59,575 bases of DNA. It comes from an uncultured Planctomycetia bacterium (GTDB lineage Bacteria; Omnitrophota; Gorgyraeia; VGKN01). The stretch lies in NCBI GenBank assembly GCA_964506845.1, contig CAZDNS010000006.1, forward strand, positions 1 through 59,575. Reading direction: 5' to 3'. The notes below the pieces were generated by a model. That model did not search any database. It had not been told where the DNA came from and was given only the letters and a program-made list of their open reading frames with translations. The position numbers were made by a program, and so were the translations under genes. Shown piece after piece: positions 11,401 through 30,500 of this stretch (position 1 is the first letter of the stretch; each line of letters starts with the position of its first letter).

Positions 11401-12322
11401 TAATGAGTGAATCTAATCCCTTTTGACGAATCTCTTCAAATATTGAGGGATGCTTCAGGGCTTCAAGGTCTGTAATATAACCGAGTTGCTCCTCGGTTAA
11501 ACCTAAAAGGGTAAGGAGTTTTTTGGTGGGAAGGTATTCTCTGTTTTGCTTGGTAAAAAATCCTAATTCGACTAAGCCGTTAAACTCTTCTCTTATGATT
11601 TCGGCGCTTAAAGTTTCTGTATTGTCTTTTGCTCTCTTCCATCCACCTAATTGCTCACTGCCTCTTCTAACGGCTATTTTTCCTTCATCATTGACACTAA
11701 GAACAGAATCCTCTGTTACAGTGCTTTTATGATACCAAAAATCCTTAAGGGCTCCTGCTATTGAACCTCGAGCAGCTGTTCTTCTTGTCGGTTTTGGTTT
11801 GGCGGGTTTTACTACTGAACCGGCTGGCGATGAGACTGTGGAGGCTGAACTTGCCGCACCCCTGGTTCTAATTGCTTTCTCAACCTCATCCTTACTTGAT
11901 TTAACTACAGAGGGTTTTTCATCGCTAAGGTCTATCTTAAAAACTGATTCTCTCTTTTCCGTGCCAAATACAATAAAAAATGTTTTATCAGTTTCTATTA
12001 TGTCTAATTCAAAGCTTTTATCTCTGAGATTTGAGGTTGTGCCTTTTATAGCGCCTTCTAATTCAACCTTTGTGACAGCGCTACCTTTTTCTTCCAAAAT
12101 TTTTATAAGCGCTTCATAAACCACGTTGGCGCCAAGAGCCATACCAGCCAAAGTCAAGCGTTCTGACGTTGGAGAATCTGGCTCTTTTTTCTCTAACAGT
12201 AATTGTGGGGCGAGTTTTGATAGGTCTTTTGCAAATAAGTCTTCTGGGCTAAATGGCAAGATACTTGATAGGAAAAAAGTCTCAATTAAGAGTATAGTTA
12301 TTATTTTGTTAAATCTACGCAA
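5495..12322 (-). CDS. Leader-passenger-CTD megaprotein: Leu/Phe/Val-type amino-acid dehydrogenase + proline dehydrogenase + ALDH-like module + P5C dehydrogenase + shared C-terminal domain
   Basis: ORF track gives 5495..12382 (2295 aa). Preferred start is TTG 12322, with GAAGGAGAG 6 nt upstream. It gives MRRFNKIITILLIETFFLSS..., aligned with the neighbouring paralog. The track ATG 12382 lies inside an 18-nt palindrome of the 5' leader. Confidence 0.9.
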   Translation of the reverse strand: MRRFNKIITILLIETFFLSSILPFSPEDLFAKDLSKLAPQLLLEKKEPDSPTSERLTLAGMALGANVVYEALIKILEEKGSAVTKVELEGAIKGTTSNLRDKSFELDIIETDKTFFIVFGTEKRESVFKIDLSDEKPSVVKSSKDEVEKAIRTRGAASSASTVSSPAGSVVKPAKPKPTRRTAARGSIAGALKDFWYHKSTVTEDSVLSVNDEGKIAVRRGSEQLGGWKRAKDNTETLSAEIIREEFNGLVELGFFTKQNREYLPTKKLLTLLGLTEEQLGYITDLEALKHPSIFEEIRQKGLDSLIKRIDNILSAVIVNRWGVHLFTTKDGTGVYRVDAPWQLPKEVHSLWKEHDALYVFSNLKIGLYGFAGAHLFLPLMERGEIEARVCGGTRIKLYPSLEAAVRPGLFLSEDMTSKIAMAGLLWDEEKKQGVGGGKVVIIYDPEASYADKEIAVKAVAGALKELSIIFTGQDENLSKELAAAMADVNPSDMIGVEGKGRGGLPPTPSTGEGVVLGMEVGVEFAFPDAPTLSGKHILLQGLGNVGTEELVHLLNKGARVTAADKDIRKVKKAKDNASFKTFIDSGQLVILGADEADELVARLERAEKDDTEKKAVEQRGFEIADKLYDIRADVFSPCSTEWVLTRQNIERLHKSGVKLIAGSSNDPIKRPEPDKGEPANLVYELAQLMHNYGMLYAPDFVINAGGLIAVLSGIFGYDVSNQLQVIPNNLRKIFTEAKARNISPLIIAEELRRDIIAKAVQGRAQLLNTIPAEKRGYLPPKIFREIYSEEREDKITETGLAIFREASKHRNVWREKVSFKNILMSWAMKDDHTMFQLLSFIDVLPRLSDRGVIQHLAEYFPRNDKRLPRLLRTLVLFGGVAARFPIFGARLIAKIVRFSVTLVAREFFAGETIEDVRKTILKQNEEGFKHSVDVLGEEVLSKEEADRYLNTYLDLFNKLRGVLKNVSIKFTSLYEAFDPIDYEGTKRAVKERLRRLLNAAKEAGVFVHVDMEQFAVRQITLDILKDVLREKEFRNQEGLGFVTQTYLEDNIRESEDDLNALFAFADENEVFLTNRIVKGAYLEYEIAMAIQEGRPIPVRKSKDDTDRNFERIARLSLEYIRIRLDKGEEIRVKPAFATHNIGDIAYVIELAEELGIDKKYFEFQLLKGMGEHIGRALVARGRGYTVRFYTPFGDLVPGMGYLARRIRENTSQSSFLRAAFLEEKDIKKILYDMREDRRRIAQGIPKPDTRVTTPMVDLSDRHPMPTLPVEIGGPLIGFNIPANEKALRDAFKRSMRSEVNADIKTTTAADAVKVAFKGFEKFRYTTPRERARILRQTAERLQGSKQRIDFIAGLLVVRGNVPHQTKPVDEADKEVARIIDILETYARQLEHMTDERWQKVQSLPGEANEYVYVPRGLGAVIIKEDVSLSMLAEMLIAAIAGGNTVVVDAKEQALKEARLLAHLLSDEKLPSSAIQPLIDQTETADSLLGNKDIEWISFAGPQEEEQRLRTRATIRAEKLLSIKRIITEITPDYIFNFVRAKAITENTMRRGITVSSEVRPSIVGLMGFKNEPTADFSDPKNRQAMVDAIRQVENTIRQRGNKPYPLIIDGKGVIPAEDIFGRIQSVNPSNPEQIIGIVSKAAVLHAGDTVAIARQAFETWKEKKAKERAQYLHKAAEIMQKRKFELAAWMVLEEAKTWREALGDVEEAIDYINYYAFEAVRMEKEDAKRKPEGWKREPNGVVAVIAPWNFPLAILTGMTIGAVAAGNSVIMKPSSQSVVVAFKFMEILKEAGLPDGVVNYLPGEGSIVGKELVEHPEVDMITFTGSWGVGSGIYRDAAIASIDRAPKQVLAEMGGKNAIIVSESADIDAAVKGVVASSFGYGGQKCSACSRVIVHEAVYDEFVKRLAGKVRALKVGNPREPGTDMGPLIDEGAQRKTWEYIGEAEKLGGRAHFLVKPEIFQGKGYFVNPVVIENVPPDSIIGQEEIFGPVLAVMKAKSFDEALNIANRSPFALTGGIYSRTPSEIEKAKREFYVGNLYVNRKITGAVVDRQPFGGLGRRSGDSKAGGPDYLRSFTHWAFSDFSLTFDYGPLLEETTAHISKKVIVLQPHMIGEALFFKISLERLIQTTKGKIQIVIDGSKIEDLEGFMQATGLKIKGEGYSIITDAVDVASLKQKALAQIESNDDDDVVVVGTKTYLEGWVSYPYIKKLMVDTKVTQDTANIGILPVAVGVARGWILEDIVTTGEGNIYILSPTKVSAVYSEQLAGYKAQLGAK
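5498..6076 (-). other. Shared C-terminal domain (CTD), copy 1
   Basis: 'LTFDYGPLLEETTAHISKKVIVLQPHMIGEALFF..IQIVIDGS..GYSIITDA..VVVVGTKTYLEGW..ANIGILPVAVGVARG..YSEQLAGYKAQLGAK-stop'. Colinear with the C-termini of ORFs 12642..15377 and 18519..38564. Confidence 0.85.
6089..7615 (-). other. L-glutamate gamma-semialdehyde (P5C) dehydrogenase-type ALDH domain
   Basis: 'VIAPWNFPLAI', 'IMKPSS', 'FTGSWGVG', 'LAEMGGKNAIIV' (catalytic Glu context), 'GYGGQKCSACSR' (catalytic Cys context), 'EEIFGPVLAV' and 'ALTGGIYS'. Confidence 0.85.
7658..8485 (-). other. Degenerate ALDH-superfamily-like module without the catalytic Cys/Glu motifs
   Basis: 'VYVPRGLGAVIIKEDVSLSMLAEMLIAAIAGGNTVVVDAKE' resembles the ALDH NAD-binding half. 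No EMGGKN or GQKCSA equivalents were seen. It sits between the PRODH and P5CDH domains. Confidence 0.5.
8663..9865 (-). other. Proline dehydrogenase (PutA-type PRODH) domain
   Basis: 'HSVDVLGEEV', 'VFVHVDMEQ', 'TNRIVKGAYLEYE', 'PAFATHNIGD', 'FEFQLLKGMGE', 'VRFYTPFGDLVPGMGYLARRIRENTSQSSFL'. Confidence 0.85.
10028..11365 (-). other. Glu/Leu/Phe/Val dehydrogenase family domain, LeuDH-like
   Basis: 'CGGTRIKLY', 'GVGGGKVVIIYDP', 'STGEGVVLGME', 'LLQGLGNVGTEL', 'IAGSSNDP', 'APDFVINAGGLI'. Confidence 0.8.
11378..11800 (-). other. Arg-rich segment + winged-helix-like linker module
   Basis: 'KPAKPKPTRRTAARGS' followed by 'EEFNGLVELGFFTKQNREYLPTKKLLTLLGLTEEQLGYITDLEALKHPSIFEEI'. Colinear with a module in the 6681-aa protein. 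Confidence 0.6.
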
Positions 12323-12494
12323 TGGGATCTCTCCTTCGTTTAGTACTGTGACTTGAAAAAAATACTGGAGCCCCACGTGCATGCACGTGGTCCCCTAAAA
12401 CTTTTACGCCACTCGTGGGGGCGACGTCCCGAACCACCATTCACCCACGGGCGTAGCCCGTGGTCCTCTGGCAACGGGATAAAAATGTCTGAGT
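12323..12494 (-). promoter_or_regulatory. GC-rich structured 5' leader of the 2295-aa gene
   Basis: Lies between a consensus promoter and the TTG start. It is visibly GC-rich against AT-rich flanks. It contains hairpins ccacgggc/gcccgtgg (12445-12463) and the palindrome ccacgtgcatgcacgtgg (12373-12390). Confidence 0.55.
12356..12395 (-). terminator. Terminator/attenuator-like hairpin inside the 5' leader
   Basis: Transcript reads GGGGACCACGUGCAUGCACGUGGGGCUCC. That is a 7-bp GC-rich stem plus 4 outer pairs, followed by AGUAUUUUUUU. It ends ~35 nt upstream of the TTG start. Confidence 0.5.
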
Positions 12495-12641: not shown

Positions 12642-15377
12642 CTACTTCGCTCCTAACTGCGCCTTGTAGCCAGCCAACTGCTGGGAATAGGCTGCAGATA
12701 CGGCGGCTGCGGCAAGGACATAGGTGTTGGTACCGGGAAGTTGTTCAACAAGCTGTGATGCCGGAATACCCAGCGCTATACTGACCGCAACAGGTAAGAT
12801 ACCTAGATTCGCATTGCCTGTTTCCGGTTCATTCACCTGAAGTTTACGGATATCACCATATTGCTGCCAGTTAGTCAGATAATCACCTGTCCCTACTATT
12901 ACTATATCATTGTCGCTTTGTGATTCGACTGTAGTAAGGGCAGTGTTTCGTAACGCTTCTATATCTTTTGCATCGGTTACTATCTTGTAGCCTTCGCCTT
13001 CTTTGCTAAGACCGGTTAAACCAAGGAAACCGTCCATATCTTTTATCAAACTACCATCAATAATCACGCTGACTTTGCCGTTTGTACTTGCTATTAGATG
13101 TTCAAGATATGCCCTAAATCCCAGCGCCTCTCCTATCATATGAGGCTGAATGACAATGACTTTCCGTGCGTTATCTTGCGCCCTAGATAAGAGACTTGCA
13201 TTATAGTCATAGACGAGTAAGGAATCGCCTAACCAGGTTGCCAGTTTAGTGTTCATATCTTTTTCTAACTCTCCAAGCTCTAAATTTGTCAGCGAGGGTT
13301 TGTTTAACAGTTCATTATCTGCTAATTCCTTAAACTGTTCATCTGTTAATGCTCCGAGCCTTTCGTCAAACATATAAGTTGCAGCCTTATTACCACGGGC
13401 AGAACTGAACTGCCTGACTAATTTTGATGCTTGCAATACATTAATCTCCGCTCGCGTGGTGGTTTCTTTGGCTTTAGGTATATCTCCCAGCTCTTGTTGG
13501 GTCATTTTGAGTAAATCTTGAACTGTAAATGTAGTCTTATCTGGGAACGTTGCAAAATATTTCTTGATATGCCTAAGCCCTCTTGCCGGGGTACCTGCGC
13601 CACGTGCCAGGCGTGTGGTGGCAGGTTCTGGCAGTGCGGCGGCTACTGCAAAAAGTTGTGCAGTTTCAGGAATTATACCTGTAGGCCTTGTAGCCCTTTC
13701 TTCTTTAGGTTTATTCTTAACCAAGAAAGGCGAGTCCGGAGCCTGAAGGGCTCTAAGCAGTTTTGCCAACGGATAGGCTGCCTCTACTGTTCGCCAGTTA
13801 GTCCCATAAGGTTCAAATTGTCCTCCCAGGCAAGCCTTCTTAAATTCAAAATTAAATTTAAACATCCTCCGCCTGATTGAGCTATAATCTCTACTTCCAA
13901 AAATATCTTTAACGCCAGCTAATGCCTTACCATCATCGGATAGCGTGTATTGTAAGCCTACTAATATGGGATGGCTTTCCTTGTTGGCTACCGCATATTT
14001 AGCTGCCGTGGGAATAGCCGCCAGCCAGTGCGAGCCATTCATATCTCCCTGGATAATAAGGGGATTTATCCTTAAGAATTCATAGATATGGCTCATCAGT
14101 TTCATACTTCCCACCATAACAGGGTCATCCTTGCCGATATATTCTCCTCCTGCTAATATTCCCAATTTTGTAACCGAACTGCCTAACACCGGTTTATCTA
14201 AATAAACTTGCGGGTTCTCAATATCCCATCCTGCATTCTTTTTTCTCCATACCTGTTTGATATTAAAGCGGTCAGAATCAGCAAGATAAAGATAGACTGC
14301 ACTCTTATCTCTCTCGGCGTCAAGGAATATCCTTTTACTTGGAACATAGCCGGATTTCTTTAGCAATCTCGCCAAATTTTGACTATCACCATCTTTGCCG
14401 ACATAATCACCTGCCTTCATCTGTCGTAATGGCTTTAGGTATTCCTTAAGAAAACCATCTGCCCCATAGCAGTTTTTAACAAACTCTTGCTCAGCTGTAT
14501 CTTTTAATTGAGTTATGGCATCTGCTACATCAGCAAACAATTCCGGCAATTCTTCTATAGGAATATTACCATGTTCGTCAAATGCCTTTGCATCCCATAT
14601 CTCAAACACCAGGCCGTTTGCAAACTCACCTTTAGCTAATGCAGCATATACCCCTTCTCTTATCAGCCTGTTTAGGGCTGCGGGTCCCATTTTATCTCCG
14701 GCCAGTATGCCAAAAGTCCTCTCGCCGCCGGCTATATCAACTAAATAGCGGGCTGAGCCAATACCCTGTTGGGAGACATTCCCAGAAAAAGGATCAAGAA
14801 GGGCTGTTTCTTGTTTTGTACTTTGCCAATGCCTCCAGCCTTTTTCCATATTATCAACCATCTGCATATAGTCCTGAGGCATAACTTCTCTTAATATCTC
14901 AAAGAAGCGTCCGCTAAGCTGGGAATAAAAATAAGGATTGGCCATAGCTAGCTTTGCTTCTTTACCTGCAAAATCCTGACCGCGGCCATAAGGTTTCTTG
15001 GGCTTCTTAAATCCCTTTGCAGGGTCAAACTTACCGGTGTTGCCTACCATAGAGGCAAGATATCCTCGCGTAAATGCTAAGAACGATAATTGATGGCCCT
15101 GTGCGCTGTTGCGCGATTTATCTCCTAACATTAAAATATGGCTATCATCTCCGATACTTAAAGTTATTCCTCTTCTTAAGCGCTTTTGATCCTTTGCGCC
15201 AATAATATTACCGTCTGTAAGCATTTCTTTTTCTTTGGCTTCTAGAACCGTTGCCAAATCAATCGCTAACATATATTGCGGCGTAAAGTTATGCCCGAAC
15301 ATTCCTCCCATATCGGCTTTATCATCAGTAACTGACAATAACTCACCTGCGGCTACTCTTGCCTCTACCTCATCCAT
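12642..15377 (-). CDS. FBP aldolase/phosphatase (class V FBPase)-like module + Arg-rich/winged-helix linker + shared C-terminal domain; no leader of its own
   Basis: ORF track (911 aa). It lies in the same frame as the upstream 466-aa ORF, separated only by TAG plus 26 sense codons. No good SD sits at normal spacing before its ATG. Confidence 0.85.
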   Translation of the reverse strand: MDEVEARVAAGELLSVTDDKADMGGMFGHNFTPQYMLAIDLATVLEAKEKEMLTDGNIIGAKDQKRLRRGITLSIGDDSHILMLGDKSRNSAQGHQLSFLAFTRGYLASMVGNTGKFDPAKGFKKPKKPYGRGQDFAGKEAKLAMANPYFYSQLSGRFFEILREVMPQDYMQMVDNMEKGWRHWQSTKQETALLDPFSGNVSQQGIGSARYLVDIAGGERTFGILAGDKMGPAALNRLIREGVYAALAKGEFANGLVFEIWDAKAFDEHGNIPIEELPELFADVADAITQLKDTAEQEFVKNCYGADGFLKEYLKPLRQMKAGDYVGKDGDSQNLARLLKKSGYVPSKRIFLDAERDKSAVYLYLADSDRFNIKQVWRKKNAGWDIENPQVYLDKPVLGSSVTKLGILAGGEYIGKDDPVMVGSMKLMSHIYEFLRINPLIIQGDMNGSHWLAAIPTAAKYAVANKESHPILVGLQYTLSDDGKALAGVKDIFGSRDYSSIRRRMFKFNFEFKKACLGGQFEPYGTNWRTVEAAYPLAKLLRALQAPDSPFLVKNKPKEERATRPTGIIPETAQLFAVAAALPEPATTRLARGAGTPARGLRHIKKYFATFPDKTTFTVQDLLKMTQQELGDIPKAKETTTRAEINVLQASKLVRQFSSARGNKAATYMFDERLGALTDEQFKELADNELLNKPSLTNLELGELEKDMNTKLATWLGDSLLVYDYNASLLSRAQDNARKVIVIQPHMIGEALGFRAYLEHLIASTNGKVSVIIDGSLIKDMDGFLGLTGLSKEGEGYKIVTDAKDIEALRNTALTTVESQSDNDIVIVGTGDYLTNWQQYGDIRKLQVNEPETGNANLGILPVAVSIALGIPASQLVEQLPGTNTYVLAAAAVSAAYSQQLAGYKAQLGAK
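12645..13220 (-). other. Shared C-terminal domain (CTD), copy 2
   Basis: 'LVYDYNASLLSRAQDNARKVIVIQPHMIGEALGF..VSVIIDGS..GYKIVTDA..IVIVGTGDYLTNW..ANLGILPVAVSIALG..YSQQLAGYKAQLGAK-stop'. Confidence 0.85.
13278..13625 (-). other. Arg-rich segment + helical/winged-helix-like linker
   Basis: 'PATTRLARGAGTPARGLRHIKKYF' followed by 'FTVQDLLKMTQQELGDIPKAKETTTRAEINVLQASKLVRQF'. Same position (before the CTD) and same Arg-rich style as the linkers in the other megaproteins, but similarity is weaker. Confidence 0.4.
13743..15350 (-). other. FBP aldolase/phosphatase catalytic module with insertions
   Basis: 'DDKADMGGMFGH', 'SIGDDSHILMLGD', 'LLDPFSGNVSQQGIGS', 'GILAGDKMGPAA', 'LAGGEYIGKDDPVMVG', 'IQGDMNGSHW'. 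These are colinear with the motifs I recall from archaeal bifunctional FBP aldolase/phosphatases (KADIGS..GHH, VGDD, DSFSGNV, ADKTEPGA, GKYVGKDDPVM, GWMRGSH). Confidence 0.75.
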
Positions 15378-15381
15378 AAAC

Positions 15382-15456
15382 GGGTCAACCTGTGCCTCTT
15401 TGGGTGCTTGTCTAAAAAGAGGGCTTTGCGCCTTTCTTAAAGGGTCAACCTGTGCC
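15382..15456 (-). repeat. 15-nt direct repeat flanking the read-through spacer
   Basis: gggtcaacctgtgcc occurs at 15382-15396 and 15442-15456, exactly 60 nt apart. It encodes AQVDP twice in the read-through frame. Confidence 0.8.
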
Positions 15457-15458
15457 TA
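15456..15458 (-). other. Single in-frame TAG separating the 466-aa and 911-aa ORFs
   Basis: 15378-15455 is 78 nt (26 codons) with no further stop. It translates as AQVDPLRKAQSPLFRQAPKEAQVDPF, directly in frame with MDEVEARV... Confidence 0.9.
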
Positions 15459-16856
15459 TGCTGCAAATGGGGCAATATAAGGTTGGTCATGCTGATGAGT
15501 GATCATAACTTTTGCAAGGAAATCTGCCAATTCTCTCTCTGGGCCCAAAGCCGGAGGATTAATAGCTACGTGATCAATTACTTCTTCCTCTTCTCTAGGT
15601 ATGACTCCGCCTAATTCACTCTGCCAGCCATAGACCACAACATGAGCAATCCCTTCTTTAGGGGCTCTCCTTGCCTCTTTCAATGTTACCGGCTTTGTAA
15701 CCACATAACGTTCGCCGTTAGCACCGCCGGGAACAAAATTGACATCGTAAAACATACTGGCAACCCCACCCACAGCATCTGCTCCGCTCTGGCTTCTGCA
15801 TATGAATGTGGGGTTAAGCGTCCGTAAATTTCCTTCCTCTCCGTAGGCTGGTTGATAGACAACGCTCACTATCGGCTCAGTTGAAGTTATGGTACTGCCC
15901 TCTACAGTATAAATACCAGTAATAAGAAAATCATTGGGTTGGCTTGCAAGTGCCAGAAGCTCCAGACTCTCATCCTTAGAGGAATATTTTTTACCATCCG
16001 CGTCTTCAAAGGCTGAGGACACTTCAAATTCCCAGACAGGTCCGTCAAATTTTCCCTTTAAAACATCCTCGGTTTTTCTGACTATGGCTCTAAAACCACG
16101 GACACCCTTCTTGCCCTTAGGGGTAAACCCCAGTTTTTTCAGTGGCGTAGACCCGGGCATAAAAAACTCGTGATAGAGTTTAATATTGGCTGCTCCGATA
16201 CCGGCGCCCACCATTTTTGCCATAACCACAGGCTCAGAACCACGTTCGGTTATGGAATGTGCTTGGTATTTCACTCTAAGCACTTTGGCTAAATCAGTCA
16301 GACTCATAGAGGCTATTTCTATTTCCTCCTTTAGCAAGCCAAGTTCCTGGGCTTTTAAAACTCCCTCTCTCATTGCCTCAAGTATCAGTCTCTGCACCGT
16401 GGCATTTACTTCACCATACCTGTGGGTCACATGAATATCTATATCCGTGGCGCCAAAATCCTTTACTACGGCACCTAATAGCTTTCCATCGGATATATAT
16501 TCGTCTAATTTCTTCGTGATTGCTTTCACCACTGCATCGGGAATCTGCTCAACTGGTTTTGCCAATAACTCAGCTATTCTATATCCGTGAATATCATTGG
16601 TGAAAAATCCCTCTTTCTGTCCTTCCGGCTCTTTTAGTTCCGTTCTTATCCTGCTGTCTAAAACTAATCTTGCCAGTTCTGCTGTTTTTCCATTGGCCTG
16701 TTTTCCTAAAGTGAGTGGCGGTGCCAATTTACTCTTTTCCAAACCGCTGGTAGCGCTTGCATTTGCGGTGTCAAAAAAAGTGGGTGAAACTACTAAATTA
16801 AAAGACACCAAAACCGTAACCAGGATGTGCCAGAATTTTTTATACTCTTTACCCAT
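15456..16856 (-). CDS. Leader + divergent FBP aldolase/phosphatase-like module (Y-x-G-K-DDP motif absent); no CTD
   Basis: ORF track (466 aa), with AGGAGGGG 6 nt upstream of the ATG. Leader is MGKEYKKFWHILVTVLVSFNLVVSPTFFDTANASATSGLEKSKLAPPLTLGKQANG. The body aligns with FBPA/P: 'GATDIDIHVTHRYGEV', 'SEPVVMAKMVGAGIGAANIKLY', 'GFRAIVRK', 'LELLALASQP'. Where 'GKYVGKDDP' is expected it reads 'AYGEEGNLRTLNP'. Confidence 0.8.
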   Translation of the reverse strand: MGKEYKKFWHILVTVLVSFNLVVSPTFFDTANASATSGLEKSKLAPPLTLGKQANGKTAELARLVLDSRIRTELKEPEGQKEGFFTNDIHGYRIAELLAKPVEQIPDAVVKAITKKLDEYISDGKLLGAVVKDFGATDIDIHVTHRYGEVNATVQRLILEAMREGVLKAQELGLLKEEIEIASMSLTDLAKVLRVKYQAHSITERGSEPVVMAKMVGAGIGAANIKLYHEFFMPGSTPLKKLGFTPKGKKGVRGFRAIVRKTEDVLKGKFDGPVWEFEVSSAFEDADGKKYSSKDESLELLALASQPNDFLITGIYTVEGSTITSTEPIVSVVYQPAYGEEGNLRTLNPTFICRSQSGADAVGGVASMFYDVNFVPGGANGERYVVTKPVTLKEARRAPKEGIAHVVVYGWQSELGGVIPREEEEVIDHVAINPPALGPERELADFLAKVMITHQHDQPYIAPFAA

Positions 16857-17322: not shown

Positions 17323-17397
17323 TTTTACTTGTGTCTTCTGACTTATACCTTATGACTTCTAATTTGTTGCTTGATTGTGACTTACAACAGGGTTAGT
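17323..17397. repeat. 7-nt-periodic degenerate spacer
   Basis: Minus strand reads GTAAGTC ACAATCA AGCAACA AATTAGA AGTCATA AGGTATA AGTCAGA AGACACA AGTAAAA. Confidence 0.5.
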
Positions 17398-17799: not shown

Positions 17800-17810
17800 A
17801 ATTCTATCTC

Positions 17811-17838
17811 TTGACAATGTTCATTTTTATGCTATACT
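17811..17838 (+). promoter_or_regulatory. Sigma70-type promoter of the AbrB/RelE-like cassette
   Basis: TTGACA (17811-17816), 16-nt spacer, TATACT (17833-17838). AGGGGG Shine-Dalgarno precedes ATG 17896. Confidence 0.6.
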
Positions 17839-18460: not shown

Positions 18461-18518
18461 TGTCCCACCTCGTAGGTGGGACAGAATACTACTTGCCATA
18501 CGCCATTTGCCATTTCCC
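18461..18518 (-). repeat. Conserved 3' block after a CTD stop codon, copy 2
   Basis: Transcript after TAG reads GGGGAAAUGGCAAAUGGCGUAUGGCAAGUAGUAUUCU, then hairpin GUCCCACCU-ACG-AGGUGGGAC (18461-18483). It lies between the convergent 6681-aa and RelE-like genes. Confidence 0.65.
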
Positions 18519-21500
18519 CTACTTAGCTCCAAGCATTGCCCTGTATGAATTCAACTGGTCTGAATAACCTTGTGGAATATTTCCTGTTGGTATTAACGCG
18601 AAGGTTGTATCGCTAAGTTTTTTAACAAGCCCTTCTATTGGCGCATTTAAAGCTATGCTACGGACAGCAGGGAAAATACCTAAATTAGCCGTGTTTTCTG
18701 GAGCTTCATTTACCTGCAGGTTAAACAGATTTTCTCTCTCCAGTCTCCACCCATCTAAATATTCCTTAGTTCCAGCTCTAACTATCTTGTTATATTCTCC
18801 TGAACCCATAAGCTCTTCTATTCCCCTCTTGGTCTTTAACTGAACTTTTCCAGAAGAAACCAAATCTTTCAAACCTGCCAATTCTAAATAGCTATCTATT
18901 TCTCCCTCTTGTATTCCCTCTTTATCAACAACAACCGTTATTCCTTCATCGCTCGCTAACAAACTATTGATAGAAAGTTGCAAGCCAAGCGCCTGCGCCA
19001 GCATATGGGGCTGTAGAACGATAAGATTCCTAAATCCTTCTTTAGGTTTTTGAAAATTGGTGGCGTAATTAAACGTTAGCCAGTTATCAGTATTAATAAT
19101 GGTTTGGGCTCTATCCATAATAGAATTATAGTAAGCTGCGAATAATAGTAACGGGCCAAGCGGCGCTGGTGTGAGTGCTGCTGGCCACGTTGATAATATT
19201 GCTTCAAACTCACTCTTCGCATTACTTAAGACATTTATCACACCTTGAGGATTAGTATTAATAAGTTGCTCTGCCTTAAAAAGTTTCTGCATATGGTTTT
19301 CAAACTCCCAGCTTATATAAATAATGTTGGCTTCTTCGTTGTAAACGAGCGGTTCCTTTTGAGTCTTTGGACCCAAGAATATGTGGGCAGAGGTAATTGT
19401 CTCTGTTTCTGGTAATAGTTTAAGAAGAAGTTTCTGAATTTCTGAATTGGCAAACCAATCAGGCATAGTATCAACCTCTAAACCTCTCTGGTATTGAGCC
19501 TGCTTTCTATCAAGGATTTTATCTCTGTCAATTAAAGATGGGTCGTTTGTTCTCATTTTGGCAATATAAGCAGCTGTATTCGGCATATCTGGTTCTTCTG
19601 TGTCTCCTTTTGCTAATTCAAAGAACATCTTCGGATGCACCTCACCAATCGCATTGCTCAATATTGCACTTATTCTGGCATCAGCAGTTGATGGATAGGA
19701 TTTAATCCTTGCCTCGGTGCCGGATGGTCTGATTATCTCCCAGGTACCGTTACTAAATTCCATATAAACTGCATCCCCTGTAAAAAGATAACGTTGTAAA
19801 TCATCTATTTGTTTTAATAAATCCTCAAGTGCCTTATCATCAGTTACAGCCTTAATCTTTGCTACCATAACCTCATCCTTTACAAGGACTTCTTTTAGAA
19901 TCGCCTTCACATCATTTAATGTGATATTGCCACTTTCTAGGGCAAATGCTAAACTCAAAAAGAAGGCAAAATTGTTATCACGCCATTCAAAACCAACATC
20001 CAACATTTCTTTCCTTCTTTCAGGCGTAGCCTGCGCAGTAGCTAAGACATCCACAAGGTCTACATCTGTCCTGAGTTCTGCTGTATTTTGCATCTGTTTT
20101 TGTTCAATAATCTTTTGGAGCATATTGCTTAAAGATATATCTTGCAAGAATTCTGCATCTTGATATAGGCCTGTTTCATTTACACCGCGCTTTAAAGCAG
20201 CCTCCCTTGCTTTATTGAACCTTTTACTTATCATAATAAACGTAAGAACGCTTGCTTCAACAGCATTCTTTTCCCTCCAGCTTAAATACCTGCGCAAACC
20301 ATCTTCTGTAGTAAGTAGTTCTGTTGAGCCAACTACCATACCGCCCGATTCTTCTCCGGCGAACAATAACCGTGGATTATAGCCAAGCCTGATAGGATTT
20401 CCAAAAATATCGTGTATAACCACCATTCTTGGCTTAAGCCCAAGTTTATGCCTTACTTCATTTATCATAAGCTGTAATTCTACTTTCCGCATAATGGAGC
20501 CTATCTCTTTAAAACCAACTGGAACTTGAACCACAGGTATATCTTCACCATTAGATAATTCAAGCCATGCACTTGAAGAAACGGTTGTTTTTATTGAAAA
20601 AAATGTGGCTGCATTGGGATCTTCAATATTCTGGCTCCATTTTCCTTCTTCTTTAAGTTGTTCTATATAGGCATCCTGAATCTGAAGGAACGTCTGATTG
20701 GGCACATAAACCGCCAAAATCTTCTCATCTGAAAGAACTAAGTATGCTATATTTAAATGTTCTAATCTCTGCTTGGTTTCTTTATCATTTTTCTCCACCT
20801 GCATTAAAACAAATCTGTCTCCATCAGGGTCTGTGGTAGGGTATACAAAACCTATTGGCTGATTCAGCATAAAAACAGGTAATTTAGACGCTGCAACAAC
20901 CTGAAGTAAACTTACATCCTCGGAAATATCGGCCATTTTTGGTCTATAATAAGCAAGCAGATTGCTATTGGCAAGTTTTCGATAGGGCACGCCCAATCTT
21001 TTGAGTAGACCTTCCTCTTCTTTTGCATATATTTTAAATTTAATATTAACTACATCGTTTTCTTTGTCCTGTCTTGGTGTTTCGCCTATATTTGAAGCAA
21101 GCTCTCTTTCGGAAATTGTTGCCACTAACACGTAGGTTAAAGGAAGGTTTCCAAAGAATTCGTCAAGCCTTGTACTGATTTTTTCAACATATCTCTTTAC
21201 GAATTCATCTGGCGGCTGTTTCTGGTTAAAATCTGTCATACCCGTATCGCCAAAGAAAGAATCGGGTATTGTGCCTGTCCAGACTATTTTACCAACAGTC
21301 TCTCTATTAAAAACCTTCTCAAATACACCTCTAAAAAACTGGTAAGCAGAGCCCCTTGCTTGGTCAAATCCAATCTTCAAGCCATTAGCCAATGCCTCTT
21401 GGACGGCTTGTATATTTGAAGAAGTAACATATGAGCCCCTTAAATATTTTGCATATTTATCGCTCACGGGTATATTGTTAGCATCAACTGGACTTTCAAT

Positions 21501-24500
21501 ATCAAAATGAATATGCTCATCACTGCTGGATGCAAACTCTATAATTAAAGGCTTACCTGTTTCAAGAATATCATCTATCTTCCTGCCGATATTATCTGCA
21601 AGGGCTACCATATCTTCTATTAAAAGCTGTGCGCCCTCACTTCTCGCTCTTCTATAAGCCTTAACATCTATACCTAATTTCTCAAGATTTGCCTCAATAA
21701 AAGGAGAAATAGGCGGCCTCAAATTCCCCATCAATTTTGAAGCATAAATATTACGGGCAGAATGACTCGCTGTATCATACATTGTAAACATTATATTTAA
21801 TACAGTTGTAATAAAAGATGTGGCTCCTATGGGCAGATAGGTTCCTCGTGATGGGCTATGCACTATTATGCCTAATTTGGCAAATCTTCTGCGCAACATC
21901 TCGCTTACCAAAGGTGTGTTATATCTAACCTCACCACCTATTATTGTTTCTGTCATGGTTGCTTCTTGTTCGGCGGCAATTTTAAGTGCCGTCTCAGCCA
22001 ACTCATTGCCCAAAAGAAGTGTTAATAAAATATTCATAGGTGAATTTAGGTCAAAAGGAGCAAGTGGGTTTTGTGAATTTCTCATTCCGGCAACAGCAAT
22101 AGGCGCCATTGCTTTGACTACATCTGCCAGTCCTTTTTTGAGATTCCATTTTTCGGCAAGTTCTTTTGTAATCTCAAGTTTAAATGGGCCGCTGTTTGGG
22201 TCTTTCAGATGCTCAATAAGCGCTGCAAGTTCAGGATATTGCGTTCGCGCCTTTTCAGCCGCTTTTTCAAAACCTTTAAGAAATTCTATTTCAAGCTTTG
22301 CGCCAAAAATAAACCTCTGCATAAGCGGTGTGATTGAATATGCAGGTTCTTCATAAGTTAAACCATCTGCAATTTTTTTCTTCTCAGTTATAAGATTAGC
22401 TACAATCTGGCGAATCATCTCTCGCCTTGCAGCTGGCTCGCTGGCAGCAATTGAAATTCTCGTAACAGTTCCTATGTCAACATCTTCACTAACTAATTCA
22501 GCTTCAGAAACCTCAACAACTTTTTTGATTCCTTCTGATATGCCTGCCTGCTTATTCGGGTTTATTCGCATAAAAACCTGCGGCTTATCCTCCTGTTCAG
22601 GTCCCACAATCCAGAGCCCGTCGCTACAAACCATAAAACTCAGTTCACTGATTTTTATATAGGGTGGAAGGCTAACAGCTATCTGTTGAGCAAGCCCGTC
22701 AAAACCATCTTTAAATGTTTTCTCTAAGTATGGCAGTAAATCAACCAAGCGAATAGCAATCTCTGCGGCTTGTGGTAATTTTTGCCAAATCCCACCCATA
22801 GTTGACGGTTGGACAACTACCTTTCCCGGCGGGTCTTCATCGCCTTTAGCCATTGCCGTTATGTAGGAAGGTAATCCCCTCAAGTCTATTTTGGTTGAAA
22901 CTAACCTTTCAAAAGGAAGTTCGGGATTTTGTAATAAACCAAAAGCTTTTTGAAAATCAGGCGACTCTGCTCCATATGCACCACTAAGAAATAGCATTTT
23001 ATCATCAATCATAGCTCGTTCTTTGGTTTCATTCCTCCTTATCGAGTCTATATCTGCTCCAGCAAATATATCTCCTTTTCTTGTCCCGCCATAAAGATGA
23101 ATAACTCCATCATTAGTAATAAGTTGTGATGCCACTCTAAGGGTCTTGGGTGTAATCGCAGTAGGAACTACAATAACCACATCAAACTTTCCGCCATCCT
23201 CACCAAGATTTTCTTCTATACCTTCTTTGTTAAATAACTTGGTGCGACCATCAAATAATCCCTGTTTTCTTAAGAAGTCAAGCCGATTACTATCTATATC
23301 TAATGCAACTATCTCCTCTGCGCCAAGATTTTTGGCTAAAAGAAGATGCATTGTCCCAACGTTACCGGCACCAATAACAGCAACCCTTTTACCTCTTAAA
23401 TCACTAACTCCCATATGAGATAAAAGTTTATCTACGCTCCTGACAACACAAGCCAAGGGTTCTGACAATACAGCCTTTTCTAATGGGATTTCTTCGGGAA
23501 CAATATTAAGCGCCTCTTTCACTCTTGCGCCCCTTACGCTAAAATACTCTGCAAAGCCTGTGGTTCTATCTGGTGTAATATTTGGATTAAAGGTTATTCT
23601 GTCACCCACTTTAAATCCTGTATCCTTTCCAGCCGCAACTATCTCACCAACTAACTCATGGCCAAATAGTGGTCCTCTATCCTCTGGAATATCCCTTGAA
23701 CTCGTTACCTCTTTTACATCCGCCCTGCAAATTCCTGCCAGAGCAACCCTTACAATAACCTCGTCTTTTGCACATTTTGAAAGGTCTATTTGTTTTTCTT
23801 GGACCGTAACCACGCCGTTTTTCAATGCACAAAATTTACAATCAACCACAGAATCAGATCTACGACCTAATGAGTCTATCATATACTTTGTCAATCCCTC
23901 ACAAGCAGGGCCGTATTTGCCAAGAATTATAGTTATTCTATCCCTAAGACCAGCCAGGAAGGGATCATCATCTAGCGGTGTTTTTTCTGGAACCAATAAA
24001 CCTCTGGCTTTATCTGCATTGTTAATTTCTTCTGAAGAGGCATTGGCAATTCCACTTAACATCGCTACCAAACTTGACGGACTATCCTCGCCAACCAAGA
24101 TTTCCAACCCATCTATTTTCCTTCCTAATAATCCTTCTATCAAACCCCTATCAATTATCGCAGTAGTCACCACCCTCTTGTTAATACCTTCGATACCTGT
24201 ATCTAAAGCACCTGTTCCTGGTAATGATAAACCTAAATTAGTTAAAGCAATTCCTTTTTCTCTTTCTGTTTTCTTATAAAGGAACTGCAAGTATTCCTTC
24301 AAAGGTATTCGCAAATCATATTTTTCGTCACTAAGACTTAACTGAGGGATATTCGCTTCAGAATTTTGTTGATTAAAGTCACGGATTCTTCTATTTAACT
24401 CCTCAACAACCTGCTGTTTTTTTTGCCCTGCCAAGCTATTCAAAGCAGCATTACGACTATCAAACTCAAAGGTTACCTGAACTGGATGCCCCTGCTGATA

Positions 24501-27500
24501 CCCCCTGCGGTCATACCGCCTATCTACTCTCACCCGAGGTATGCTAACCTCAACAACCTCAGTGCTGTCTAAACTAAAAAATTCTGCTGCCTTATCTATT
24601 GCTGCCATCCATTCCCTTTCAAAACTCGCTCTACCTTCTTCATCTATTTTTCTTTCTTCGAAGAATTCGGCCACAAAATCAATAGCTGGTCTATCTACAA
24701 GATTGCCTTGCTCATCAAACGTATAAACTTGTTTACCGCCGCAATGCGCAATAATAATCTGCCTGCGTAGATGCGCTGGTAATATATCAACAACCCTGAG
24801 TAATAAATTATTTAAATCACCACCAGAAAGAATAACCAATATTCCGCCGCGACTTAGATATTTCGTAAGCAAAACATAGTTATCAGGGGAAAGCCGATAC
24901 TTTGCTGGCATGGGTTTCTTCCCTTTAATTATCTCTTCTAATTCCTCAGCGGATAAATCAATAACCGGCCATGTAAGAAACTGGTCATTGTCAAATATCA
25001 ATACATTTGTCCCTGGCATAACATCTTCTATCTCCTCATATCTCTGCTCTGCCTCTCTAAGGGCTCCGCTTGAGAAGAAAGCTTCAACTGTATCGCCTCT
25101 ACCAAAGATACGCGCTTGGCTAATAAGTTCAGCGCTTTTGGCAAAAATATCCGAGAGTGTCCTTATTGTAGCTTGGTCCAATTTATCAACCGTGATCACA
25201 ATAGTGGGAGATTTTGCTGCTAAAGCATTGGCATTTCCCTTTGCCAAGCCATAATTCACATCAGCAACACTTAACCCTATGTGATGTGGCGTATGCACAT
25301 CATCTACTTTCAATAGAGATTCTAATGCTTTGCCCTCTGGGCGTTCATAATCACGGGCAAGGATAAGAATATCTAAAAACCGCGCGCTTTGTCCTATAAC
25401 ACCTTCAATATATGAATGTGAATCAGTCGGAAGCTCTCCTGTAAAAACAATCATTCCATTTTTTCCGGATACACTTTCCTTAAATGCTCTTGTAAGTAGC
25501 TTTAAACTGCTGTTATTAACAAGGAAATTTATATACTGACGTGCGGGATCCTCAGCATAAGCCAACGCTAAAAAGGTTGCAAGCTGTATAGCCAACAAGG
25601 TTTTTTGATCGCCCTGAGCCTCTGCCCTTTGAATGATAGGAGAAATCTGTGCTTCAAATTGTTCTCTCCTTGCTTTCACAGCAGACTCGTTATAACTTGC
25701 TTCGCCTAATGATATATTCACATCTATTCCAAGCGCTTGCGCTGCGGTATTTAAAACGCCTGTTTTAACAAAAACATCCGCCTTCGCCACCCCTGCTTTT
25801 AAGCTAACTGCATTTTTATATCGTGGAGTAAGCCTTCCAAAAATGGGCAGATTTTGAATCTTGTTCGCCATACTTATGCTTCTTAACATTTTTGCATTTT
25901 CAGCAGAATCCACGCAAAACTTAAACGCATTAATAGCCTCATCAAATAATACTGCCAGCATATCTTCATAAGAAATGCCAATTTCTTCTGCCAATAGTGA
26001 AAATTGTTTCCATAAAGAAATAGCTGCTTCATCCGGTTTAACTTCTTCATCGCCACGAAGAATATCTGTCTCATCAGGTCGTCCTTTGGCAACAGGCAAT
26101 TCGCCTACTTCTACCGTAATCCTATGTCTTTCTCTCGTTCTCTCTCCCAATTGAGCTAAAGCCACAGCGCCTTCATTCCTGACCCTTCTTACCATAGGAT
26201 TTGAATAATGGTCCTGGTTCACCATATGGCTGTAAGAGGCGATTGTATCCTCAAACAGAGTTGTCAATTCAGCGCTAGATTCTATCGTCATTTTCTCTAT
26301 CTCTATAACTATAACTGGCATTCTCTGTTTTAAAGACTCTGCCTTCTTAGATGCCTCGGCATAACCTGGGTCGCTCTTATCTAAGAGAACTATTACTATA
26401 TGGTCATCAGCCATATTCTCTGCCACTCTATCAAGTGATTTATCGCCAGGGGGATAGATACTAAGCAGTGTGGGTGAAAGTGCCTCTGGTTTATTGACAC
26501 CCTCCATAACCCACTGCCTCAATTCTTTTGCCTTGGGCATTAGGCGCTCACTGCCGATAACCATAGCTATATTCTGACGTCTTCCTAAGCGCATATTGAC
26601 GTCAATAAATCGGGCAAGCTGAAAAGCAAAGCCGTCTTTTTTTGTGAAACTAAGTTTCTGGTCAGCCGTATCGGTCACCTCTACATATCTCTGTGTAATC
26701 TTCGGGCCAAAGGCTAAATAGAAAGGCCCATATACCATTTCCGTCTTTCGGCGCATAAACCTGCCTCCTATATTGCGTTTTGGGCTAAACGGAAAAACCC
26801 TTGCGCCTGCATCAGCAAAACGTTCTCCTAATATCTTAAGCGCACCCTGGTTAGCAAATGCAATATTATGCGTAAATTTATTATGCGTAAATCCAAGAAC
26901 TTTCTCTGTCTCGGTAGTTTCACCACTACGGGACAGATAAATCCACAGACTATTGTCATCTTGAATATCGGGATGTTCTGAAAGAATCCTTTCAAGCTCA
27001 ACAGGGTTATTGACTAAAATCAATCTCGGCCTCTTTCCAAGGGTGCCTCCTTCTCTCATTTCTTCCTGCAACCTCATCATTTCATGAAGTAGGAATTCAT
27101 TTGCTCCCATACCCATAACAAAGAGCCAGTCAACATTTTCAATGCCTCTAAAATGTTCCGCAACATATTCATCTAATTGTTCTGCTACAGCAGAAAATTC
27201 CTCGTTATAATATTCTTTAACCTCTCCACGATAATTTAAATTGCCTCTTCTTTCTTCCGGCTGGCTTTCTTTATTTTGCATAATATCCTGCACTTCACTA
27301 TGAAGCCTTCTGACAACTGCAAGTTCTTCTCTATCTACTATAACCTCATCCTTGGGCAGGCTTACGCTAATAGCTACGCCGTGTTTGGAATACCCAGAGA
27401 CCTTCTCAGCATCAACTAAATCGCCTGCTTTTAAACGGGTTTGCCTTTCTGCAGGTATGGTGGGAGGAACATCGGTTGCAGCAATTTGCTCTAATTTATA

Positions 27501-30500
27501 CCGGCTGACCAATCCTTTAAGTAACGGCTGTTTTGATAAAATGTTTAAAATATCCTCTGGGTTCTTTCTAGAAAGCTCAGCCAATCTGGTAATAAACACC
27601 TGCACAGCTGTGGCATTTAGCAGAATTTCTGTCAACTGGGAAGAGGGGAGCCCTGTTGTTTGCACAATTCTTGCAAACTCTTCGCTTACGGTTTGCAGTA
27701 AGGATTCAGAAGGCTTTGATACCGGAGCAGGATGGCCACTCCCAGAAGAAGTGCGGCTTGCAGCCATATCATTCAGTGTGCTAACATAATGTAAACTATG
27801 AAAGGCTTCGCTTACTCGTGGCTCGGCATTCTCTATCAATCTGGATAGCCGAGCGGAAATATCCTTAAACCTATCTTCTTTGTTTAAGGCACTTTCATCG
27901 GTGCTCAGACGGCCTAAAATGCGCACCTGCCCTTTTTCCATCTGATATGCTAAATCACCTGCCTCGACTAAAGATATAGCCTCTCCTGAAGCGGCAGGCC
28001 AATTGAGGAAAAAGTTAATGCCATCAATACTTCCTAAAGAGATATAGAAGCGCCTGTTGCGATAATCCTTATCTACAGCATAATATATCTTGCCTATGGA
28101 AACTTGGGTTTTAATCTCGTGTCTATCAATATTCTCTCTCTCATAGTGACGGAGATTATATAAAGGTAGCAGTATCTCATCCAGCGCCTCCTTATGCCTT
28201 AATAATATCTCTGCCATCTTTCGCTTTCCTTCAGCACTTAAGTCCCATACATTAGATATACTCCCCCTAAAATCATCTTGCAAAATCAAACCTTTAAGTC
28301 TTCTTAAAAGCTCCTCAGGGTTTGGTGGTTCTTTACTCTTTAAAAGATATACAAGCGGCGCCATTGCATCAGGGACAAGGTAAAAATCCTCGCCTGCCTT
28401 TCCCTGGTCAAAGCATAATGCCACAAAAATATCTCTTAACTTATCCAAAATCTGAGCTGCAATTTCAAAGTTACCTTTTTCTATTAAGCCCGTTTCTACA
28501 GCGCGCCCTGCCTGACGCAGCTCTTCCTGCATCATAAATCTGATAATTGCCTTCTTTTTATCCTCCGCATATTTATTCCAGTTCTTTTCCAAAAATGCAA
28601 AATAGGGCTGTCTTGCTAATTCTGGATGAGCCTTAAGCGCCGCTTCTAATTCTTCGCTGCGATTTTTCTTTAGCCAGGCGTAGAAGAGAAGGTCTTCATC
28701 CAAAGCAACCGATTCGGTGAGGTTAGCCTCGTGGTTTAAAAGCAATGTCTGCAGTATTGCGGGCAACATCGTCCATTCATCGTCTATCTCTAAGAACCCA
28801 TCCCCGGGATTTGAGATATAAAATTCATTGTCAGGGTCAACGAAAAATCTTGTTTTAAAAGAATATGAGCTACCAGGAAATCTACGAGCTGCATAAGAAG
28901 AATTTACCCCATGGGAGTTTAAGTAAGCCTGCCAGGTAGCAAGGGCTCCAGAAAGATTAGCATTTATTCGCCTGAGTTCTTCAGCGGTATACAAAGGCCG
29001 TGGTTCTTTGGCAAATTTATGACTAACCTTAACCAAACCTTCAACTACTAATTCTAACTGACCCTCGGCCTTATAGCTCTTATATACACCCTTTTCTTTA
29101 ACAACTGTTTTTCTTAAAGGCGCTCTATGAGCAACTGTAAGAGGGATAGTAGACGCATACACATATGCCTCGCGGGCTAAGCTCGGAGGTATGACTATTA
29201 AACAATTTTTATAACTACCTTCTTCTACAACCTCTTTAAGTAAGTCTCTTAAATAAACTAAATCTGATATCAAGACAATATTTTTTTCTCTTAGCCCAAC
29301 TACTTTCAATCCCGCCTCTTCTGCCCTTATAACCCTTGGGTCATCCTCAGTAACTTCGTCCGCAACTATTACATGCTTTACACCTGCCAACCTTAGAGCC
29401 TCTGCGGTAATATCAGAGGTATGGGCACCTGGTTTAAATGGAGAAAGCCATTTTATATCCACGGCCAATTCCATTCCATTAGGCAGTGTGGCTTGGTTTA
29501 AATCAAACAGGTCTGCTGGGCTTTCACCCCTTAGGGCGCGGTCAAAAAGCGATATATCTGTATCCGATACAGCAAAAAAGATACGGATATCATTTTCAAG
29601 GTCAATATCAGAAAGGTTTGCTTCAATAAATTTAAAAATATCCATTAGCTCTCTTAAATATGCGGCTTCCATTTTAGCGCCGCCAACCTCAGCCTTGAGA
29701 TTAAAACCCAAAGTCGGAATGCGGCCTGAAAAGGTTCCTGATTTTTTCTGCGCTCGCACTGTCTCAACTATAGCCCTTATCAGGCTAAGAGCGGCCTCTT
29801 TTGTAAGGGATGCTCCGCCAATAAGGCCGCCGTCAATATCAACCTCAACCATAAGGCCAGCGGCATTCTTTGCATTCATACTGCCGCCATACTGAATGAC
29901 CACTTTATCTGCATCGCCACCAACTAACTCCCTAAGTATTCCCTTGATAAACCCTTGCACCTCTTCTGCTTCTTGTGGCGTAGCGGGCCGTATGGCTTTT
30001 TCGCCAATAGCCCAAATCGGCTCATAGGCTATAATAGTGTTAAGAATCTGCTCTCTTGTACGACCGGCTAAACCATTAACTACCTGACTACGAATAAAGT
30101 TCCATCCTTCCTCTTTAAGTTTCCCTTCATTTGCATCGTCCTTTGGATAGCGCATCTCTGCTGGTTCGCCTACTGCCAACACATTAATACCACCCATTAT
30201 CCCATCAGCTTGCTTTAAAAGCGCATTGACATCTTCATCAGTCAATTCATGAGCAACTCTTGATTCAGAGTGGCCGCTTAGGATACCATCCGCGCCTAAG
30301 GATTTAAGAAGTTTTATGTTCGTTTTTTCGTTTGCCTGAGCCATAAGCCGCATAGGTCGGTAAAAATAACGAACTTCGCCATCCACGATTTCCTTTTTGA
30401 CTATCCATTTAGAGCGTGCCAATGCCTCCAATACCTCTTCTGCAGAATAACTCCCTGCTACTCCACTCTCCTCTAACTCTTTTACACTTAAAGACTTTCT

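Follow-up and report, generated by a model that had tools for sequence, protein, structure and literature searches.

A C-terminal domain shared by multi-enzyme proteins of one Omnitrophota lineage and its possible role in assembly

Omnitrophota are uncultured ultra-small bacteria that encode giant multi-enzyme proteins. A 59,575-nt contig from one of them (CAZDNS010000006.1 of assembly GCA_964506845.1, analysed over its whole length and hereafter called the window) raises the question of what a single domain does at the end of several otherwise unrelated enzyme chains. The domain, about 195 amino acids (aa) long and referred to here as the C-terminal domain (CTD), is homologous in three open reading frames (ORFs), all on the minus strand, and closes each of them. 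We describe its copies, its family and its predicted fold, and weigh a tentative role as an assembly cap against other functions.

A new domain family at the ends of enzyme chains

In a 6681-aa protein the CTD occupies 18522..19100 (minus strand, −; residues ~6489–6681), with the stop codon at 18519–18521. Further copies end a 2295-aa ELFV-dehydrogenase + PutA-like (Pro_dh + Aldedh) protein (5498..6091, −) and a 911-aa ORF made up of the C-terminal part of FBPase_3, a second shared module, W, and the CTD (12645..13238, −). On the plus strand the frames of these intervals are full of stops; the minus-strand translations yield the peptides that a first-pass annotation of this DNA had described without naming a strand, and each runs into a stop codon. 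In pairwise BLASTP comparisons the 911- and 2295-aa copies share 50% identity (E 6e-57 to 2e-59), the 911- and 6681-aa copies 35% (E 3e-27 to 2e-31), and the 2295- and 6681-aa copies 31% (E 3e-22 to 6e-24), the copy of the 6681-aa protein being the most divergent in the window. At the sequence level, this similarity is far beyond chance. Searching the six-frame translation with a profile built from the three copies revealed no fourth complete copy in the window, and it matched a fragment at 46129..46377 (−; profile positions ~49–101, E 3e-6; core match of 50 aa at 46216–46365) whose nearest relative among the copies is that of the 6681-aa protein (38% identity over 50 aa). BLASTP and the profile thus bear out the three copies and one fragment of the first-pass annotation, and the piece that it placed at 46129–46400 is a genuine remnant. 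Its count of three megaproteins holds in that three ORFs end in the CTD, but the 911-aa ORF is the C-terminal part of an FBPase-like gene of ~1400 aa that is split by a TAG codon.

With the three-copy profile, an index-free HMMER search across 1.84 billion representative proteins returned eight CTD proteins at E ≤ 1e-3, two of them the window's own and each a singleton cluster; word-indexed homologue searches with the CTD alone or with an 8-sequence alignment returned nothing. All source-named representatives come from metagenome-assembled genomes (MAGs) of Candidatus Omnitrophota/Omnitrophica. MAG DeMMO3_15 was the sole match in a scan of 185,579 species-representative genomes, and JGI metagenomes contributed two contigs, L003 and L004, in a second scan (none in the first). 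Local HMMER iteration closes the family at 17 hits. The profile and these scans answer the question of what else carries the domain: a few Omnitrophota proteins beyond this locus. The first-pass annotation, which had proposed docking or co-assembly among other roles, regarded absence outside the locus combined with no oligomerisation as evidence against itself; the domain is present elsewhere.

The position of the CTD is strict. All 11 complete copies end at the last residue of their protein and none is internal, though the hosts are domain mosaics, and two more, truncated by a contig end, are C-terminal over the part that can be read. The cargo that precedes the domain varies. In the window it consists of FBPase_3, of ELFV_dehydrog + Pro_dh + Aldedh, or of a GDH-PEPCK-enolase-iPGM-TIM-ADH-PGM series; elsewhere it comprises HD + HEAT, FBPase + AlaDH, iPGM + PGM, or a multi-enzyme chain of 2829 aa, and one 364-aa carrier is enzyme-free and contains only the W module and the CTD. 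Judged by Pfam content, the statement that the domain terminates otherwise unrelated enzyme chains therefore holds in the window and in other Omnitrophota alike. Several copies can occur in one genome on adjacent genes: three and a remnant in the window, and two, with conserved synteny, in DeMMO3_15.

Across 11 members, D6, D62, L78, G117, Y121, L134, A144, N145, Y185, L189, L196, and A198 (numbering of the CTD of the 911-aa ORF) are invariant, and K199 is near-invariant (10/11). Most near-invariant positions are hydrophobic or glycine. The tail follows the consensus Y-S-x-x-L-x-x-[YW]-[KRQ]-x-x-L-x-A-[KM], and the terminal helix has one conserved hydrophobic face formed by Y185, L189, Y/W192, and L196. 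The landmark motifs listed in the first-pass annotation are found in the three window copies, except that the 6681-aa copy has VVVD in place of I-[IV]-[IV]-D; two of them, Q-P-H-M and G-T, vary across the 11 members. The QPHM loop after strand 1 differs among close members, reading LSVDT in P0004, IQAES in P0005, LPIEV in P0007, and QPEM in L001; EPQM also occurs.

No Pfam hit was obtained for the three window copies at E ≤ 0.1 or for the 11 members scanned singly at E ≤ 10, and no CTD match was found in NCBIfam or among PDB sequences with single copies or a 3-sequence profile, nor in the latter with an 11-member profile. The earlier failure to match the domain to any family thus persists in all three databases. 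One candidate, the type I phosphoribosyltransferase / PRPP-synthetase-associated protein family, was considered and rejected: its E of 0.024 with the 3-sequence profile dropped in significance to 1.3 with an 11-sequence profile, and the CTD lacks the TG-T part of the PRPP-binding loop (a hydrophobic strand and two acidic residues, then TG-T). Literature searches retrieved no description of the domain. The CTD is a previously undescribed, lineage-restricted domain family in one Omnitrophota sublineage.

The first-pass annotation had guessed an alpha/beta fold, and a confident AlphaFold2 model agrees. Computed from the 8-sequence alignment, the model reaches a mean predicted local distance difference test score (pLDDT) of 85.5 and a predicted template modelling score of 0.86, with all five models at pLDDT ≥ 81; it was used instead of an earlier run on a 3-sequence alignment (pLDDT 55). 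The predicted structure is a Rossmann-like sandwich of alternating beta and alpha elements, after which come a beta hairpin and a terminal helix of 16 residues. D62 is located at the end of strand 2. In Foldseek searches of the PDB and BFVD, E stayed above 1e-3 for every hit, and TM-scores were 0.28–0.38. The best hit was the KTN domain TM1088A (2g1u; E 3.9e-3, probability 0.91, TM-scores 0.28/0.35, root-mean-square deviation 5.6 over 123 columns), followed by transhydrogenase dIII, NadD, GT-B, SDR, and HAD structures, which are generic Rossmann-like neighbours. Hydropathy revealed no terminal transmembrane (TM) segment in the CTD, which ends in an amphipathic helix closing with L-G-A-K. Membrane insertion by the stretch A-N-L-G-I-L-P-V-A-V-S-I-A-L-G, which has a hydropathy of 1.78 in one copy, was rejected, as other copies contain Arg there and the helix lies within the AlphaFold2 fold.

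Constant ends and exchangeable cargo

All seven CTD carriers with a complete N-terminus (the 6681-aa, 2295-aa, and split FBPase-like proteins, the FBPase-like protein of L001, the 2829-aa protein of L003, P0006, and P0008) begin with a common leader. It consists of a positively charged start and a single strongly hydrophobic helix of ~20 aa, in many cases interrupted by an E, Q, or N, and 6–15 residues further on carries the motif [KDE]-L-[AV]-P-[PAQ]-[LIM] (the K-L-A-P-P motif). An AXA-like site frequently precedes the motif and an R-R-N-G stretch often follows it. Six leaders are encoded in the window, at 38220–38327, 12197–12313, 16683–16829, 44878–45006, 5155–5280, and 46574–46690 (all −). 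Three of them belong to ORFs that show no CTD in the sequence read: a PPDK-like protein (38626–45027), ORF 1–5304, and a 130-aa ORF (46331–46723). The PPDK-like protein (2133 aa, −; PPDK_N, PEP-utilizers, and PEP-utilizers_C), encoded directly upstream of the 6681-aa gene, has the leader and lacks the CTD. ORF 1–5304 (−) comprises the N-terminal 1768 aa of a leader-bearing multi-enzyme protein that runs off the window, with Fer4_20 and Pyr_redox_2 domains in a glutamate-synthase-small-subunit-like unit.

The W module lies at 13206..13682 (−) and is composed of R-G-x-G-T-P-x-R, a winged-helix-like stretch, and L-L-N-K-P-S-L. It directly precedes the CTD in 8 of 11 carriers; the 6681-aa protein has none at this place. 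Weaker internal copies occur at residues 252–341 of ORF 5495–12382 and 2592–2686 of ORF 18519–38564. No Pfam family matches the module, the only hits being weak ones to CopY/ArsR in P0005 (E ~0.08).

Between these constant parts the three hosts differ in their Pfam content. The 6681-aa protein (18519..38564, −) runs from the leader through GDH (a Glu/Leu/Phe/Val dehydrogenase), GTP-type PEPCK, HAD, enolase, cofactor-independent PGM (iPGM), TIM, unassigned stretches, Zn-ADH, and a PGM-like unit to the CTD. The 2295-aa protein (5495..12382, −) contains the leader, the weak W module, ELFV dehydrogenase, PutA_N, Pro_dh, Aldedh, and the CTD. The split FBPase-like gene (12642..16856, −) belongs to the class V FBP aldolase/phosphatase family (FBPase_3). 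Its N-terminal part (15456–16856, −; 466 aa) holds the leader and FBPase_3, its C-terminal part (12642–15377, −; 911 aa) FBPase_3, the W module, and the CTD. A single in-frame TAG at 15456–15458 (−) separates the two, and the frame is open and conserved past it (...PFAA-stop-AQVDPLRKAQSPLF... in the window versus ...PFAAEERVAELRREQSPLW... in P0004); in relatives the gene is one ORF of ~1400 aa. The TAG may have arisen by a recent nonsense mutation or a sequencing error, or it may be read through.

Exchange of cargo can be followed at one genomic slot. A 532-aa membrane protein encoded at 47588..49186 (−), possibly of the Tiki/TraB/ChaN superfamily, has relatives at L003 54–1658, L005 6884–8551, L009 8415–9983, L010 8461–9987, L011 8394–10007, and L012 1–657. 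The family members (~510–555 aa, a single TM segment) adjoin leader-bearing enzyme proteins in seven other Omnitrophota loci, at 25–86% identity. They share the motifs V-x-[IL]-Q-[DES]-x-H-x-[ND]-Y, W-G-[IV]-E, R-[DE]-E-[AS]-L, and GG[FY]H, and the C-terminal GG[FY]H region has sub-threshold Pfam matches to ChaN (E 0.035) and TraB/PrgY/GumN (E 0.05). From these sequence features, the Tiki-like protein is a candidate processing protease. In L003, L011, and L012 the gene that immediately follows it encodes a leader-X-(W)-CTD protein in which X is entirely different each time: 2829 aa in L003, ~830 aa in P0008/L011, and ~800 aa in P0006/L012. L011 has the same upstream gene order as the window (PNPase, UppP, FtsK, RodZ, MiaB, PgsA).

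In the window the slot is occupied by a PilZ gene and a leader/CTD remnant. The 130-aa leader-only ORF (46331..46723, −) encodes a hydrophobic helix and RLAPP and shares 58% identity with the 6681-aa protein's leader over 57 aa; the CTD fragment is out of frame with this upstream ORF. Both ends match the 6681-aa protein best and, by sequence, are the remnant of one leader...CTD gene. The remnant ends beside a toxin-antitoxin pair on the opposite strand, an MntA-type nucleotidyltransferase (Polbeta; 45272–45682, +) and a HepT-like RNase (45679–46095, +), whose insertion may have destroyed the gene. Since the slot holds a different X in each locus and the remnant keeps both ends, the leader and the CTD are the constant parts and the middle is exchangeable.

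Other Omnitrophota lineages close comparable proteins differently. A full-length FBPase query retrieved 48 homologues at E ≤ 1e-10, all source-named ones from Omnitrophota MAGs, and most entries with a Met start open with a signal-like helix. The CTD is present on the DeMMO3_15 orthologue alone; the others end in different C-terminal modules of ~110–220 aa. Modules of type 'BC' (P0012, P0016, P0018, P0029, P0054) align with the CTD over ~168 colinear columns (hhalign probability 38–48%, E 2–3e-4, against E 0.13 for a reversed control), which suggests a wider superfamily, or a general design with a C-terminal cap, at the level of sequence profiles. HMMER iteration built no bridge between the CTD and the modules of other lineages, and hhalign of the CTD to module types D, E, F, X, and T was negative. 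As to the modules themselves (P0012–P0054; L005 12827–17815), one type is ~200 aa long, alpha/beta-patterned, and ends in ...Y-[RE]-x-x-[MI]-x-x-[AIV]; types ending in ...A-K-S-A or ...V-A-A are related to each other (hhalign probability 90%); and a further type is the ~110-aa 'GGIDFR' module. In L007, a 324-aa leader-only protein (6243–7217) and a 1795-aa SIS protein (7696–13083) end in ~200-aa stretches that appear similar by eye.

What the C-terminal domain may do

We tentatively prefer to read the CTD as a cap that serves protein-protein assembly or docking in modular leader-cargo-CTD proteins; the binding itself, the partner, and the side of the membrane are what we infer. In such proteins an N-terminal leader is followed by a variable cargo of one to ~ten fused enzymes of central carbon or amino-acid metabolism, often by a W module, and finally by the CTD. 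The CTDs would gather the distal ends of enzyme chains tethered at their N-termini, by binding either to each other or to a common partner, and enzymes from different genes of the cluster could then act as one membrane-associated metabolic assembly. The terminal position, the lack of a catalytic motif, the co-occurrence with the leader, and the swapping of cargo in a fixed slot, which like homology, distribution, and fold class are directly supported, argue for this reading, as do the divergent paralogues on adjacent genes, the unrelated cargo, and the enzyme-free W + CTD protein. KTN domains sense a ligand and assemble into dimers or rings. Thus, the nearest, if weak, fold neighbour of the confidently modelled CTD is one that works by assembly.

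Several observations weigh against a cap. In the model, the four invariant polar residues D62, Y121, N145, and Y185 lie at ligand-binding positions of a Rossmann fold, which suits a sensor no less than a docking surface. The leader resembles a Sec signal or signal-anchor and is compatible with a sorting role for the CTD, and the PPDK-like leader protein (38626–45027) lacks the domain, so that not every presumed member of an assembly needs it. The connection with C-terminal modules found elsewhere in the Omnitrophota is no more than suggestive, and the family is tiny (17 local hits, 8 representatives), which makes its conservation statistics weak.

A ligand sensor is the alternative that survives best, although we regard it as doubtful. 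The ligand of the CTD would be a nucleotide or metabolite (NAD(P)(H), an adenylate, and a sugar phosphate are examples) bound at the C-terminal strand ends; on binding it, the domain would allosterically tune or conditionally dimerise the chain, in the mode of KTN/RCK, ACT-type, and CBS-type modules. The beta-alpha-beta sandwich fits this idea, the leading Foldseek matches (KTN TM1088A, transhydrogenase dIII, NadD, SDRs) all bind nucleotides, and a cargo of metabolic enzymes makes feedback control plausible. Invariant D62 ends strand 2, the classic ribose-binding position, and invariant G117, Y121, and N145 are located at strand ends or helix starts; yet the loop after strand 1 is neither glycine-rich nor conserved, with QPHM varying freely. 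The structural matches are distant (TM-scores 0.28–0.38, none at E 1e-3) and no Pfam nucleotide-binding family appears at E 10. A regulator would require neither a strictly C-terminal place with a conserved last residue nor a 364-aa carrier that has no enzyme to regulate.

Sorting, export, or anchoring is, in our estimate, unlikely. Here the CTD, perhaps through its free ...L-G-A-K end, would be recognised by a secretion, surface-attachment, or quality-control machine and, by analogy to the C-terminal domains of the type IX secretion system (T9SS), would direct leader-bearing proteins to the envelope or into prey. Its strictly C-terminal position, the near-invariant tail (A198 invariant, K199 in 10/11 members), and its presence on many different proteins of one genome are what a sorting signal would display. 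Every complete carrier opens with a signal-like helix, in many cases with an AXA-like site behind it, and in preprints the giant and multi-enzyme proteins of Omnitrophota have been described as mostly signal-peptide or membrane proteins (10.64898/2026.06.07.730766; 10.1101/2023.11.21.568195). The cargo, however, needs cytoplasmic cofactors: it includes GTP-dependent PEPCK, NAD(P) dehydrogenases, and FAD-dependent PutA, with an Fe-S/FAD glutamate-synthase-like unit on a neighbour, and because of this need for GTP, NAD(P), FAD, and Fe-S, Sec export is hard to reconcile with activity. Several leaders, as read from the sequences, are more positive after the helix than before it, which fits an anchor with the N-terminus out and the C-terminus in. 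The window contains no secretion-system gene, and the CTD lacks similarity to any known sorting domain, its 195-aa alpha/beta fold being unlike known C-terminal signals.

An enzymatic function of the CTD itself, for instance as a phosphotransfer enzyme or hydrolase using the His of Q-P-H-M to add one common reaction to each chain, is very improbable: polar strand-end residues of the window copies (Q-P-H, D-G-S, G-T) and weak Foldseek hits that include HAD phosphatases and nucleotidyltransferases would suit it, but His, Gln, and Thr are replaced in P0004, P0005, P0007, and L001, catalysis by the His is disfavoured because QPHM is not conserved across the family, and searches yielded no enzyme family by sequence and no convincing one by structure.

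The assembly-cap reading can be extended to further genes of the locus. Stand-alone small PilZ-domain genes adjoin or separate the megaprotein genes in the window (17401–17820 and 47000–47401, both −), and likewise in the distant Omnitrophota locus L005 (6500–6739 and 18424–18753), which hints at c-di-GMP-linked control. In the broadest version, the leader, the W module, and the CTD would form a dedicated system that tethers most gluconeogenic/glycolytic and amino-acid-oxidising enzymes to the membrane and zips them into a 'glycolysome-like' metabolon, with the CTD as universal docking unit, exchangeable enzymes, a Tiki/TraB-like processing protease, and PilZ proteins as c-di-GMP-dependent regulators. 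This full scheme is speculative and we give it little chance.

Other elements lie close to the host genes. An ORF for a 23S rRNA intervening sequence protein or bAvd-like four-helix bundle (16933–17349, −) is situated between the PilZ gene and the FBPase gene. Directly after the stops of the 911-aa and 6681-aa genes, at 12600–12638 and 18464–18515, the window contains a shared element, GGG[AG]AAATGGCAAATGGCGTAT, with an identical 18-mer (0.08 matches expected by chance) and a 7-bp hairpin, CCCACCT-NNN-AGGTGGG, with the loop in inverted form in one copy relative to the other. The element may be a terminator or small repeat; no copy follows the 2295-aa gene or occurs in any locus fetched. A scan of the window against Rfam at gathering thresholds gave no hits.

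Comparison with known systems

Giant, membrane-associated, and multi-enzyme proteins of Omnitrophota have already been described (10.64898/2026.06.07.730766; 10.1101/2023.11.21.568195; PMC10066038). The window proteins resemble the 'multi-enzyme metabolic clusters' and Archaeovorins of the same phylum, which are likewise long chains of metabolic domains, PPDK and sugar metabolism included, and are predicted to be membrane-anchored (10.64898/2026.06.07.730766; 10.1101/2023.11.21.568195). Unlike the published giants, they are smaller (0.9–6.7 kaa) and encoded in a tandem gene cluster. In term searches of the three reports (10.64898/2026.06.07.730766, 10.1101/2023.11.21.568195, and PMC10066038), neither a shared C-terminal domain nor the K-L-A-P-P leader nor the W module came up.

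Among systems that gather or enclose enzymes, encapsulins and microcompartments use short targeting peptides or helices at the cargo terminus together with a shell protein; the conserved terminal helix of the CTD is, in the AlphaFold2 model, the last element of a folded 195-aa domain, and no shell protein families were among the Pfam hits for the window ORFs scanned. KTN/RCK domains (TrkA_N, PF02254), the best but weak structural neighbours, share with the CTD a Rossmann-like fold and an acidic residue ending strand 2. They differ by their GxGxxG loop, which the CTD lacks, and by the absence of a Pfam hit at E ≤ 10.

T9SS C-terminal domains, PEP-CTERM, and LPXTG signals are, like the CTD, strictly C-terminal, lineage-restricted, and attached to unrelated proteins with an N-terminal signal-like segment. 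T9SS domains (Por_Secre_tail / TIGR04183), however, are beta-sandwiches of ~80–100 aa, with no Pfam or NCBIfam match here, and the sortase and exosortase signals (PEP-CTERM, LPXTG) consist of a short motif, a TM helix, and a basic tail, whereas the CTD has no terminal TM helix.

The CTD adds to the catalogue of families a small, by prediction well-folded, lineage-specific module common to several Omnitrophota multi-enzyme proteins. Its modular setting, in which leader and C-terminal cap stay constant and the enzyme cargo between them is exchanged, offers a handle for studies of localisation and assembly, and if the CTD were a docking unit, it would represent a new way of building metabolons and a possible scaffold part for synthetic enzyme assemblies. 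In this respect it is dockerins that it recalls: there, too, one C-terminal module occurs on many catalytically unrelated proteins, with several paralogues per genome, and the role proposed for the CTD is likewise the gathering of enzymes. Dockerins (PF00404), however, are duplicated EF-hand modules of ~70 aa that bind calcium, belong to secreted enzymes, and have a known partner, cohesin; Pfam scans of the ORFs examined in the 59.6-kb contig listed no cohesin, and no targeted cohesin search was made. The Rossmann-like CTD is ~195 aa long, carries no calcium motif, is not matched by the Pfam dockerin model, and follows cargo of a cytoplasmic type from central metabolism. Its design is thus that of dockerins and T9SS C-terminal domains, but it shows none of the defining features tested for either.

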